DNA from: a virus
Lineage: Duplodnaviria > Heunggongvirae > Uroviricota > Caudoviricetes
Reading direction: 5' to 3' (one strand)
IMG/VR virus record: IMGVR_UViG_2563366972_000006
Length of the DNA stretch: 34,196 nt
Position numbers: made by a program. This document shows, in pieces, positions 29,601 to 34,196 of this stretch. Every line of letters starts with the position of its first letter. Position 1 is the first letter of the stretch.

Positions 29601-32600
29601 GGATGAGTCAGGCACTGCGGGTCAGGGGGTGATTACCATCACCCTTGCGCGTGGAGAGCCGGGGAGAAATACACCTGCTGCACCGGAACGACCGAGTAAA
29701 CGTTATGGCAGTCAGAGAGCATGAACGAAGCAGTGCCCGGCAGCGACGGCTGGCACGAAACCTCGTCGTCGATATTGATGAAGATGAGGTGCTGAAAATT
29801 GTCGCTAAACTGGGTGGGTCAAAAAGTCAGATCCGTAAAGCCTGGGGCGTGGCGCTGAAAAGAGCCGCGTCTGCACTGCGGATGAAGGCTATGGCTGAGT
29901 TTAAAAAACAGGTTGCCCCACGCAGTCAGAAAATGATCAAAAAGCGTGTTCTGCATAATTTTATCATTCGTCGTAACGGTGATGAGTTTGATGAGGCGAA
30001 GGTATGGTTCGGTCTGAACGCCATCAAAGTACGCGATCTGCGCGGACGCATCAGTGGGGGACGACGCGGCGAACGCCATCAGTTGCGCGATGAGCGGGGG
30101 CGTTTTGCACCAGCTTCCCGCCGCAGGAAGGTACGGGAGATCCGTTTTAAACCTGCCGGGGAATCCCTGCCTGTCACCACCTGGTCAACGGATGATGCCT
30201 TTATCAACCAGTTCGAAGCGGAAAATCGTAACGGACGTATATCAAAAAGGAAAACGATACTGATCCGACAGGCATCCGGACGACGGAGGGTGCGTGAAGC
30301 GGAAATTGATATTTATGAAGCCATGCTGAACCGTATCGAGGATTTTGTTTTTCCGGATGCGGAAGCACTGATCCTGAAAAATTTTGAGCATGAACTGAAA
30401 TTCCGGGTATTTAAGGGGCTTGAGTGATGGAGCCATTGATGATGGGAGCCTGGCATCAGGCGGTGATTGACAGTCTGAAACAAATTCCCTGGGTGGAAGA
30501 TGCCGATGAGTACCCGGAAAAAGTGACGCAACTGGTGACGCCTGCCGTGTTTGTGGATGTGCCTGGCTGGGACAAAGCTCCGTTTGCCAGCGGACAGACG
30601 CGGGTCACGCTGAAATGTGATCTGTTTGTGGTGACAGACCGGGCCGGGAAGACGGAAAACGTGCCAAAACCGCAGATTTTTGCCCGTTGTCTGGCGATGG
30701 ATTTATCTGACTGGATTGAGGGAGCCACGTTCGGGCTGGATAACGTTGATCCGGCGGTTTTTATCGATGCTGAGGTGGATACCTTCGACCGGCTGCTGGA
30801 CGACTACATCGTTTTCCGTGTCTCTTTTGAACAGGACATTCCGGTCGGCGAAGATCCGTTTGCGGTTCCGGCAGGTGCGCCGTTACAGGAAGTCTGGCTG
30901 GGTAAAGTACCGGAAACCGGCAAGAGACATGAGCAGGATTATCGTCTTATCTGGAAATCGGAGGGCACCGGTGATGAGTCTGGCGGATGAAGTGGCAGAG
31001 TTACGCCGCAGGGTGGCGGACATGGTCCGTCGCGGCGTGGTGGACGAGGTGATCCCGGGTAGCCCGGTGATGGTTCGGGTGGATATCGGGGATGTGCTTT
31101 CGCCTCCGTTGCCCTGGATTCAGGTACAGTCCGGGCGCTACATGCAGGTCAGTAATTATCCGGCCCCCGGAGATGCCGTTACGGTGATATCGGAGGCGGG
31201 CGATCTGCGTAACGGTCGGGTGTATCCGGGGGCCAATATTGACGCCATTCCTGTCCCTGAGGGCAGTGAATACGAACATGTTATTTTGTTTGATACCGGA
31301 ACGAAAATCCGTTACGACCGTCAGGCTAATGCCCTGTCCATCACGCTGGCTGAAGGCGGCAGCTATAAAATTACCGGCAGGGGAACTCTGGACGGCCCGG
31401 TAGAAATCACAGACACCCTGACCGTACAGGGTAAAGCAACCATGAATGCTGAGGCGGTGGTTAAGGCGGATCTGATGGTCGGTGGTGAGGTTTCTGATTA
31501 TCACGGAACGATGAGTCAAATCAGAATTGTCTATAACGGTCACAATCACCGGGGCGACAGTGGTGGCAGCACCGGACAGCCTGGTCAGCAAATGTAATCT
31601 CCTTTCAGTTCTTTTTCCGGAATAAACAACATGATTGGTATTGATTCAGCCACCGGCAGATATCTGCACGGTAACGAACATCTGCGCCAGTCCGTCACCG
31701 ATATTTTGTCAACGCCGGTCGGCAGCCGGGTCCTGCTCAGGGAATACGGCAGCAGACTTTTCAGTCTGCTTGATAACCCACAGGATGATTTCACGCGGGT
31801 GAGAATAGTCCGTGAAACGGCAACCGCCCTTGAACGCTGGGAACCCCGACTGGCCCTCCGGCGGGTGGAGGTGACATGGACGGGAGAAGGAGGCGCCTGG
31901 CTGACGCTTGTCGGGGTGAATAACGAAACTCAGGAAACGATTCGACTCGAGGAGATAAAAATTGGCAACGTCTCAGGCCATTATTGATTTGTCCGCGATA
32001 CCTGTACCGGATGTAGTGGATGTGCCGGACACCGCTGTGCTGGTCACTCAGATAGTGGCGAAGTATCAGGAGCTGGATACGTTGTTTTCGGCTCTGGTGG
32101 AATCTGATCCCGCGTATAAATGGGCAGAGGCGCTGGCTTATCGGGTGGCGCTGATGCGCCAGCAGATCAATGATGCTGTCCGTGCTGTACTGCTTGCCAG
32201 TGCCGGTGGGAACGACCTGGATCAGGTTGGCGCGAATTATCAGGTTCAGCGGCTGGTTATTACCCCGGCAGACGACAGCACCATTCCGCCCACGCCGGCG
32301 GTGTATGAAGATGATGACGCTTTTCGCGAACGTATCCAGTTGTCATGGGCACGGCTCAGCACCGCCGGCGCGAAAAATGCGTATCACTATTTTGCACAAA
32401 GTGCTGATCCTGATGTGCTGGATGTGAAGGCTTACGGGCCGGAAACACATTCGCAGGAAGGCCGGGTTTTTCTTTATGTGTTATCCCGGTCCGGAAATGG
32501 CACTGCATCACAACCCCTGCTGGATAAGGTGGCAGCATCAGTCTGTGATGATGAAACCCGTCCCCTGACGGATTTTGTCAGTGTCCGGACGGCAGAAATT

Positions 32601-34196
32601 ATTCCCTACGATGTGGTGGCGGATATTCATATTCCCTACGGGCTGGATGGTGAACTGGTCATGGCAAATGCCCGCCAGGCACTGCGGTCTTACACTGACA
32701 GCGTCCACCGGATAGGCTCGGTGGCGTCACGTTCCGGCATGGATGGTGCTCTGCACCAGACCGGGGTGATTACGGTGAATCTGACCTCACCAGCCAGTGA
32801 TATCGTTCCTGCGATGGGGCAGGCACCGTGGTGCCGTAGGGTAACGCTGAATAAGGTGGAGACAACCGATGAATGACGATATCAGGAGCATACTGCCGGT
32901 CAGTGCCCGCCGGGCAGAGCGGGTGGTGGACTGTGTCGCCGGAGATATGCTGTCAGACATAGCGGTCTGCCTGATCCGCTATGTGAAAAATCCCGATTTA
33001 TGCCCTGCTGAATTGCTGCCATGGCTGGCCTGGGAAATGGCAGTGGATACCTGGAATGAACACTGGACGGAGGCGGAAAAACGGTCTGCAATAAAACGTG
33101 CTGCTTACATCCACCGTCACAGAGGCACAAAAGCGGCGCTGATGGCGTCGCTGGCTGACAGTCCCTTCCGGTCGCAGATTGTTGAATGGTATGAGCAGAC
33201 CCCTCCCGGAGAACCGTATACCTTCCGTCTGAACGTGGAACAAAAGGATTTACCGGTACTGATGAATGATCATCAGGATCTGAAGCATGCGGTGCTTCGT
33301 GCGAAAAATCTGCGCAGCTGGTTCAGTATTCACGTTTACGGGAACAGCAGGGGGCGAGGATTTGGTTACGGCTATGTGATGGCGACAGAAAAAATCAGAA
33401 GTACTGGTGTGATAACAAAAACAGTGTCCACTGACGGGCAGAGTGAGGCGGGAGTATGAATGGGCTGATTCTGACAACATCCGGCGCTGCAGAAATTGAA
33501 GCGGCATATCAGAACGGGCAAACAGTGACTGTCCGGCATGTTCTGCTTGGTGACGGGGGTGGGCAGGCATTGCCTTCCACGCCTGATGAAATGGCAGCAA
33601 TAACATCGTTGTATGGCGAATTCGGGCAGGAACCCTTTTCCAACGGAGCAGTGGAGGAGGGCTTCATCAGCGGGGATATTGTGATTGACTGCAAATCATA
33701 TCCCGGAAAAACCCTTCGTGAACTGGGGATTATCAGCGACAGAGGTACGCTTATCGCGTACGGACGTTATCCGGACACCTTTTTACCAGACCAGACGGAT
33801 TCCGTTATTAAGGAAGTTATTCTGACGCTGGTTCTTGGACTGACGCACGCACAAAACGTGGTGCTGGAGGTTGATCCGGACAGGGCCATTATTACTCAGG
33901 AAATCGGAGACAGACGCTATCTGCAACGAAAAAAGAATCTTTCGGATGTGGAAGACAAGGACGAGGCTGTTGAAAACCTCGGATTAAAAACCACGGTGGA
34001 CAAGGCAAAAAATGCCGTTCAGCGTGATGGTGACACCATGACCGGGGAACTGAAAATCCGTGGTGTTAATGCGCTGAGGATTTTCAACGACGCTTTTGGT
34101 CTGATTTTTCGTCGTTCGGAAGAGTGCCTGCACCTTATCCCTACCAGTGAAGGTCAGGGCGAGAATGGCGATATTGGTCCACTTCGACCGTTCACT

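Follow-up and report, generated by a model that had tools for sequence, protein, structure and literature searches.

What joins a head built from lambda-type genes to a baseplate of the P2 type when both are encoded on the same DNA? The question is raised by IMG/VR record IMGVR_UViG_2563366972_000006, a Caudoviricetes sequence of 34,196 nt (hereafter the window, to which all coordinates refer), in which packaging and head genes in lambda order are followed, after two intervening genes (29705-30427 and 30424/30439-30990), by P2-like baseplate genes and a tail fibre gene. A sequence-only reading of this DNA had taken the arrangement as chimeric and had proposed that the two genes, then unassigned, adapt the lambda-type head to the contractile-tail baseplate. 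It now appears very probable that a lambda/phage-21-like head and a P2/pyocin-like contractile tail belong to one prophage and that the two genes finish the head-proximal end of the tail. The chimeric interpretation thus survives in its main part, a lambda head with a P2-type tail, but the adaptors are replaced by ordinary tail-completion and terminator proteins. The window as a whole looks like the left ~34 kb of a single temperate lambdoid prophage from an E. coli-like host.

The two open reading frames (ORFs) exist as had been predicted and overlap their neighbours. The first (29705-30427, plus strand) is intact, overlaps the stop of FII by 20 nt and encodes a protein of 240 aa, which matches phrog_27 ('tail completion or Neck1 protein') over nearly its full length (E-value 3.7e-28). 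A profile search of 1.84 billion representative proteins returned 187 matches to this family at E ≤ 0.001. Within a set of 46 members, consisting of the window protein and 45 mostly distant matches, 26 are recognised by the Pfam family Minor_tail_Z, with a best E-value of 1e-12. Alignment of the deep family profile (A4) with lambda gpZ by hhalign gave a probability of 95.2 % and an E-value of 2.9e-8 over 130 columns, covering an N-terminal A-x-x-R-x-A helix and a C-terminal R-x-G-x-x-R-x-P-I motif, and the family profile aligned with gp7 of the Wolbachia phages WO at 99.3 %. Shallow profiles (A2, A3) compared by hhalign with the single sequences of P2 R and S and of lambda Z and U yielded no link, and a single-sequence search of the PDB with the 240-aa protein returned only noise. 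On the strength of these profile matches the protein is a gpZ homologue, placed at the Neck1 (Ne1) position between the head closure protein (Hc1) and the tail terminator (Tc1). It is also very basic, with 37 arginines and an arginine-rich central stretch that is shorter in lambda gpZ. This enlarged version could have an additional role specific to contractile tails and might, for instance, plug or position the end of the DNA beneath the terminator.

The second ORF (30439-30990, plus strand) is likewise intact and encodes 183 aa. It begins 11 nt beyond the preceding gene or, if the alternative GTG start at 30424 is used, overlaps its stop, and it overlaps the start of V by 17 nt. Neither Pfam nor NCBIfam recognises the protein, whose sole match is phrog_1072, a family of 'unknown function'. 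For both candidates Pfam and NCBIfam were blank, and each matched a PHROG family. An AlphaFold2 model built from a 44-sequence alignment reached a mean pLDDT of 83, and according to this model the protein is a tail terminator with the gpU fold (Tc1). Its best match in both structure and sequence is PA0615, the collar of the R2 pyocin: the terminator family profile finds PA0615 by sequence (E-value 1.9e-4) through the C-terminal half, where the two proteins have a G-x-x-P-x-x-G-x-x-H-x-x-D-Y stretch in common, and a single-sequence search of the PDB gave a weak match to the same protein (E-value 0.086). Unlike lambda gpU (131 aa), the terminator carries an extra C-terminal extension, and it is about 50 residues longer. 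In the diffocin collar, the N-terminal domain sits on the tube and a C-terminal strand joins the handshake sheet of the sheath (PMC11329794). A comparable anchoring of the last sheath subunit is described for P2 gpR in a cryo-EM preprint on P2, which also links the PA0615 pyocin collar to gpR (bioRxiv 10.64898/2026.09.14.750843). By analogy, we infer that the terminator described here divides its labour between tube and sheath in the same way.

These assignments fit the scheme of Lopes et al. (2014, PMC4362835), in which Type-1 necks made from homologous parts are common to lambda, P2 and Mu, and thus to siphoviruses and myoviruses alike. In this scheme FII is Hc1, gpZ is Ne1 and gpU is Tc1, the Ne1 superfamily comprises gpZ, SPP1 gp16.1 and P2 gpS, and the usual gene order is Ad1-Hc1-Ne1-Tc1. 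It follows that FII, the gpZ-like protein and the terminator stand in lambda order, and all three Type-1 features have their counterparts in the window (FII for Hc1, the gpZ-like protein for Ne1, the gpU fold for Tc1). The proposal that the two genes bridge head and baseplate consequently has to be abandoned: instead of adaptors, a gpZ-like protein and a terminator are predicted, which would work at the end of the tail that faces the head, away from the baseplate. Nor does the combination require any special adaptation, since lambda, P2 and Mu all use necks of this kind and the cassette is old.

The head and packaging module is lambda-type throughout. From Nu1 to FII (21610-29724) all nine genes score above the Pfam gathering threshold and follow the lambda order, as the sequence-only reading had it, and a megablast alignment with phage 21 at 76.7 % DNA identity extends from the cosB region to position 28904, which is exactly the stop codon of E. 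Homologues of the P2 head genes (Q, P, O, N, M, L) were not seen in the window. The module, entirely on the plus strand, opens with a cosB-like region (21445-21600) that aligns with the R3, IHF, R2 and R1 sites of phage 21 (84 % column identity to phage 21 bases 1-215, with sites taken from the OL657228 feature table). It is followed by the small terminase subunit Nu1 (21610-22158; GTG start aligned to that of phage 21; Phage_Nu1, 2.7e-81), the large subunit A (22130-24046; GpA_ATPase, 9.7e-54, and GpA_nuclease, 2.1e-68), the head-tail joining protein W, which takes the place of the Ad1 adaptor (24050-24259; gpW, 4.1e-25), and the portal B (24256-25827; Phage_portal_2, 2.1e-95). The S49 protease and scaffold C/Nu3 comes next (25817-27433; Peptidase_S49, 2.4e-33), then the head decoration protein D (27472-27807; HDPD, 3.9e-23) and the major capsid protein E (27876-28904; Phage_cap_E, 1.1e-66), each 59 % identical to its lambda counterpart. 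The DNA-packaging protein FI (28955-29320; Packaging_FI, 2.1e-13) resembles lambda FI in the first 40 residues only (40 % identity there). The module closes with FII (29320-29724; Phage_attach, 6.5e-13; phrog_82 'head closure Hc1', 9.7e-30), which is 33 % identical to lambda FII and 38 % identical to FII of the Hafnia phage yong2.

Two strong GC-rich hairpins with T-runs lie after D (27828-27852) and after E (28908-28928). The latter coincides with the end of the phage-21 similarity and may mark a mosaic joint, an attenuator, or both. The scaffold part of C/Nu3 (26800-27305) contains a 138-nt (46-aa) tandem repeat of 3.7 copies with 78 % matches according to TRF, the repeated motif being 'ALPEAKGREQLAQ.LA.QPGMTV.QAK.LLAAAP'.

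On the other side of the two genes stand, again on the plus strand, the baseplate central spike gpV (30974-31597; TIGR01644 phage_P2_V, 8.7e-20; 26 % identity to P2 V), the gpW/gp25-like baseplate wedge protein and sheath initiator (31631-31987; GPW_gp25, PF04965, 1.2e-15; 38 % to P2 W), the wedge protein gpJ (31962-32876; Baseplate_J, PF04865, 2e-21; 41 % to P2 J), the baseplate protein gpI (32869-33459; Tail_P2_I, PF09684, 3.4e-35; TIGR01634, 1.6e-27; 36 % to P2 I) and the N-terminal part of a gpH-like tail fibre with a tail-collar N-terminus (33456-34196, cut by the window end; Phage_tail_fib, PF12571, 7.1e-15). All identities to P2 tail proteins are from direct BLASTP comparisons. The five genes follow the P2 order, and the profile searches and the 26-41 % identities of V, W, J and I bear out the P2-type baseplate and fibre that had been proposed. 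Non-contractile tail genes, which in lambda follow Z and U (V, G/GT, H, M, L, K, I, J), are not present; P2-type V, W, J, I and H stand there instead. Among phage records no DNA-level similarity spans the tail region, the matches being limited to patches of 65-70 % on J and I and a segment of the fibre gene: its last ~270 nt (33929-34196) are 96.6 % identical to the fibre gene of the Stx2e phage phiP27. Given that the remaining parts of the tail module lack a close relative among phages, this patch suggests that fibre sequence was exchanged locally.

The sheath and tube genes, expected beyond the fibre gene, were indeed encountered there in two near-identical E. coli relatives (97 % over 29300-34196). 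In these, the fibre gene is followed by genes for fibre assembly, sheath, tube, an E-like chaperone, a 550-aa protein in the T (tape-measure) position, U, X and D, then by a second fibre gene and the chromosome, such that the prophage ends right after the tail module. By BLASTP, the identity of the relatives' proteins to those of P2 is 22-51 % for G, sheath, tube, U, X and D, whereas the E-like and T-position proteins have no match to P2. Head, neck and tail genes form a single operon: FII, the gpZ-like gene, the terminator gene and V overlap or nearly abut, consensus promoter-like sites are no more numerous in the region than in shuffled sequence, and its only strong hairpins are those after D and E, upstream of FI.

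Several observations weigh against assigning head, neck and tail to one virion in this manner. The 240-aa protein of the window itself reaches no Pfam threshold and is not recognised by NCBIfam either. Its AlphaFold2 model is of poor quality (pLDDT 62) and gave no meaningful match in either fold search, and the gpZ-like assignment therefore comes from sequence profiles. No similarity to P2 gpR or gpS was detected, and the deep profile also fails against gpS. For the C-terminal arm of the terminator the model has low confidence, with a pLDDT of about 58-63. The window stops inside the fibre gene, and sheath and tube are visible in the relatives only. The R3, I1, R2 and R1 sites of cosB align well with phage 21, but the cosN 12-mer (GGGCGGCGACCT in phage 21) is unmatched at ~21420-21445 upstream of Nu1, and the cohesive-end sequence may therefore differ from that of phage 21. 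Finally, no virion, electron microscopy or induction data were found for this prophage.

The last two points, together with the mosaic make-up of the window and its low-GC inserts, would also be expected of a decaying, non-functional remnant, whose head and tail modules no longer cooperate. Such a remnant is improbable: the 16 morphogenesis ORFs of the window are all intact and lie close together, and the region 29300-34196 has 95-97 % identity to E. coli prophages, at least 80 % of it being kept in 73 of 5,426 complete genomes. These copies occupy several attachment sites, which suggests recent mobility. HNSQ2209, the best E. coli relative, has the same element at the Rac site, adjoining ttcA and carrying intR, xisR, ralR, recT and recE, whereas in STEC316 the right end adjoins an ompW fragment.

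Even less probable is a juxtaposition of two separate elements, a defective lambdoid prophage lacking a tail and an R-type tailocin cluster that starts with the collar gene. That the terminator resembles PA0615 best would fit such a juxtaposition, as would the gene order of the pyocin cluster, in which the collar gene is followed by V, W, J, I, H and G, then by sheath and tube, E, T, U, X and D, the same order as in the relatives. However, FII and the gpZ-like gene lie directly upstream in overlapping frames, with no regulator, lysis or integrase genes in between; within the lambdoid part no separate set of tail genes is present, and the relatives' prophage ends right after the tail module; and the same head-to-tail layout recurs in the sequenced phages yong2 and Chris1 and at 15 other loci.

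The single-prophage reading, with a neck that belongs to the tail, is reinforced by the conservation of the neck genes. In a scan of one genome per species, 16 Enterobacterales loci encode the terminator, and FII, the gpZ-like gene, the terminator gene and V are adjacent in that order in all 15 that have enough flanking sequence. What surrounds this cassette varies. The head is of the yong2 type, with a ClpP-capsid fusion, at 13 loci and comprises lambda-type W, B, C, D, E and FI at one (Serratia proteamaculans, L011). The tail genes are arranged either as V-sheath-tube-...-W-J-I or in the P2 order V-W-J-I-H-G-sheath, and Serratia rubidaea (L023) combines a yong2-type head with the P2 tail order. 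Likewise, identity between the window proteins and those of yong2 is 25 % for the large terminase subunit and 24 % for the portal, compared with 38 % for FII, 42 % for the gpZ-like protein, 52 % for the terminator, 52 % for V, 59 % for W and 56 % for J. Because the cassette is constant and its surroundings vary, the neck genes belong to the contractile-tail lineage and heads are swapped upstream of FII. FII, the gpZ-like protein, the terminator and gpV are thus an old unit travelling with the contractile tail. The least probable of the alternatives, a recent direct recombination in E. coli between a lambda/21-like phage and P2 or a close peduovirus with two newly recruited adaptors, could draw on the 77 % DNA identity of the head to phage 21, its abrupt stop at the end of E and the silence of Pfam and NCBIfam on both genes, but it founders on tail proteins that are only 22-51 % identical to P2, on a marginal DNA similarity to peduoviruses (the tail's nearest phage DNA being, the phiP27 patch apart, the 65-70 % stretches of J and I), and on the age of the two families (gpZ/Ne1 and terminator/collar), which are kept with gpV from Enterobacterales to Wolbachia WO and are 42-52 % identical to those of yong2, a phage with a different head.

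Chimeras of lambda and P2 have been described before, in WO (PMC3235987) and in Xylella XfP1/XfP2, and the element fits this known class of temperate myoviruses with lambda heads and P2 tails. Masui and colleagues attributed lambda-like packaging and head genes and a P2-like baseplate to the WO phages. Both WO and the present element combine P2-like V, W, J, sheath and tube with a terminase, portal and gpC that are lambda-like. In WOcauB1, moreover, the gpZ-like gp7 and gp8, a homologue of the terminator (27-31 % identity), stand in the same order directly before gpV, so that the features of a WO-like lambda/P2 chimera are all found here, including a Z-like and collar-like pair upstream of V. 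The two differ in the host, which for WO is an alphaproteobacterium, and protein identity between them reaches only about 25-30 %. WO also has another baseplate-to-tail arrangement and a eukaryotic association module, in contrast to the Rac-like early region and near-phage-21 head of the window. A second group of comparable systems consists of Hafnia phage yong2 and Citrobacter phage Chris1 (both unclassified Caudoviricetes) and related Enterobacterales prophages. They have the same cassette, at 38-52 % identity, and their contractile tail is homologous, with 59 % identity in W and 56 % in J. Their head, by contrast, has a ClpP-capsid fusion, with no C/D/E-type genes in yong2, and identity is down to about 24-25 % in the terminase and portal. 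Their tail genes run V, sheath, tube, E, T, U, X, D, W, J, I, H, G instead of following the P2 order.

Resemblances and differences also emerge from a comparison with lambda, phage 21, P2 and the R2 pyocin. Lambda and phage 21 have the cosB site, the genes Nu1 to FII and then, in the order FII-Z-U, a gpZ homologue and a terminator with the gpU fold, but in lambda the terminator gene is followed by the non-contractile tube genes (V, G, T, H, M, L, K, I, J). As no such tail genes are present, the element is not a lambda-like siphovirus. P2 and the R2 pyocin have homologous V, W, J, I and H (in the relatives also G, FI, FII, U, X and D) in P2 order, and the terminator resembles PA0615; P2, however, has its neck genes in the order R then S, as opposed to Ne1-Tc1 here, and its head genes are absent. 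The Peduoviridae signature comprises the large and small terminase subunits, the portal gpQ, the scaffold, the capsid protein gpN and the completion protein gpL (bioRxiv 10.64898/2026.09.14.750843), and since none of these six head genes is present, the element is not a peduovirus either. Nor can it be classed as a tailocin: directly upstream, in the same operon, lies the full set of head and packaging genes that the R2 pyocin lacks. Searches of a phage collection for an isolated, characterised phage of this E. coli lineage and of full-text literature for the phrases 'lambda-like head' and 'P2-like tail' gave no match.

Taken at face value, the genes predict that the virion should be a myovirus. 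Nu1 and A would package DNA from a phage-21-like cos site into a lambda-type head made of B, C/Nu3, D and E, which gpW and gpFII would then close. The tail would be assembled separately on a P2/R-pyocin-type baseplate consisting of the V spike, W, J, I and the H fibre. The 183-aa protein would presumably form a hexameric terminator ring, its gpU-like core capping the tube and its C-terminal extension of ~45 residues, similar to PA0615, tying down the last layer of the sheath. As the Ne1 factor, the 240-aa gpZ-like protein would render the capped tail competent for joining and for positioning of the DNA, whereupon FII would dock on the terminator as in lambda. What the analysis shows is the identity of the genes, the constancy of the cassette and the tail genes that follow in the relatives, together with the terminator fold and the homology of the 240-aa protein to gpZ; the stoichiometry of the ring, the sheath handshake, the role of the arginine-rich segment and the actual production of particles are extrapolated from them.

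For two families annotated as hypothetical in RefSeq, the analysis proposes roles, as a gpZ-like tail-completion protein and as a collar-like tail terminator (phrog_1072), and related cassettes also occur in other Enterobacterales. The locus provides a clean example of where a mosaic joint is placed, with heads exchanged upstream of FII, the neck travelling with the tail and FII as the point of contact for whatever head module is joined to it. No new mechanism is implied, as lambda-head/P2-tail hybrids and Type-1 necks common to siphoviruses and myoviruses are already in the literature. A more speculative and rather unlikely extension would make the cassette a portable docking unit for unrelated heads, of the C/D/E type as well as with a ClpP-capsid fusion, give the gpZ-like protein its extra role and have the R-type pyocins descend from this lineage and not from P2 proper. 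The last idea stems from PA0615 being a homologue of the terminator detectable by sequence, which P2 gpR is not, and from the agreement in gene order between the relatives' tail genes and the pyocin cluster.

The remainder of the window is that of a lambdoid prophage with a Rac-type early region. A tyrosine integrase gene (1-1236, minus strand) is followed by RecT and RecE/ExoVIII, a cI-like repressor, YdaT, DUF1376 and DnaC-like replication genes, and then by two Q-like antiterminators, two holins, an M15 endolysin and Rz, so that Rac-type integrase and RecET functions are combined with Q-type late control and a lysis cassette. At most 73 % of positions 9200-34196 is found in one place in any complete E. 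coli genome, at ~95 % identity, and the element is therefore a mosaic, yet clearly of the E. coli type. The two Q-like genes, 11649-12176 (Phage_antitermQ) and 16644-17186 (DUF1133 with a weak antitermQ match), lie on either side of a low-GC island, and their pairing suggests a duplicated or composite late-control region. The island itself (12186-14607, minus strand), within the early/Q region, has 32-36 % GC compared with ~50 % in its surroundings. One of its products, of 398 aa, is an NA37/NdpA-like nucleoid-associated protein (Pfam, 2.8e-51); the other, of 414 aa, has no Pfam or PADLOC match, and a PADLOC run on the cargo genes returned no defence match. The island could be cargo or a defence-like moron. 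At locus L006 of HNSQ2209, AB5-toxin genes (enterotoxin A family and subtilase-type B subunit, 18796-20014) lie between the Q-like gene and the holin, a position that corresponds to 17200-18378 of the window, where small ORFs only are found. Between the lysis genes and cos, the region 20034-20728 looks like a moron: it contains a 205-aa ORF on the minus strand with a weak match to the histidine phosphatase family His_Phos_1, and a strong plus-strand hairpin with a T-run at 20703-20728.

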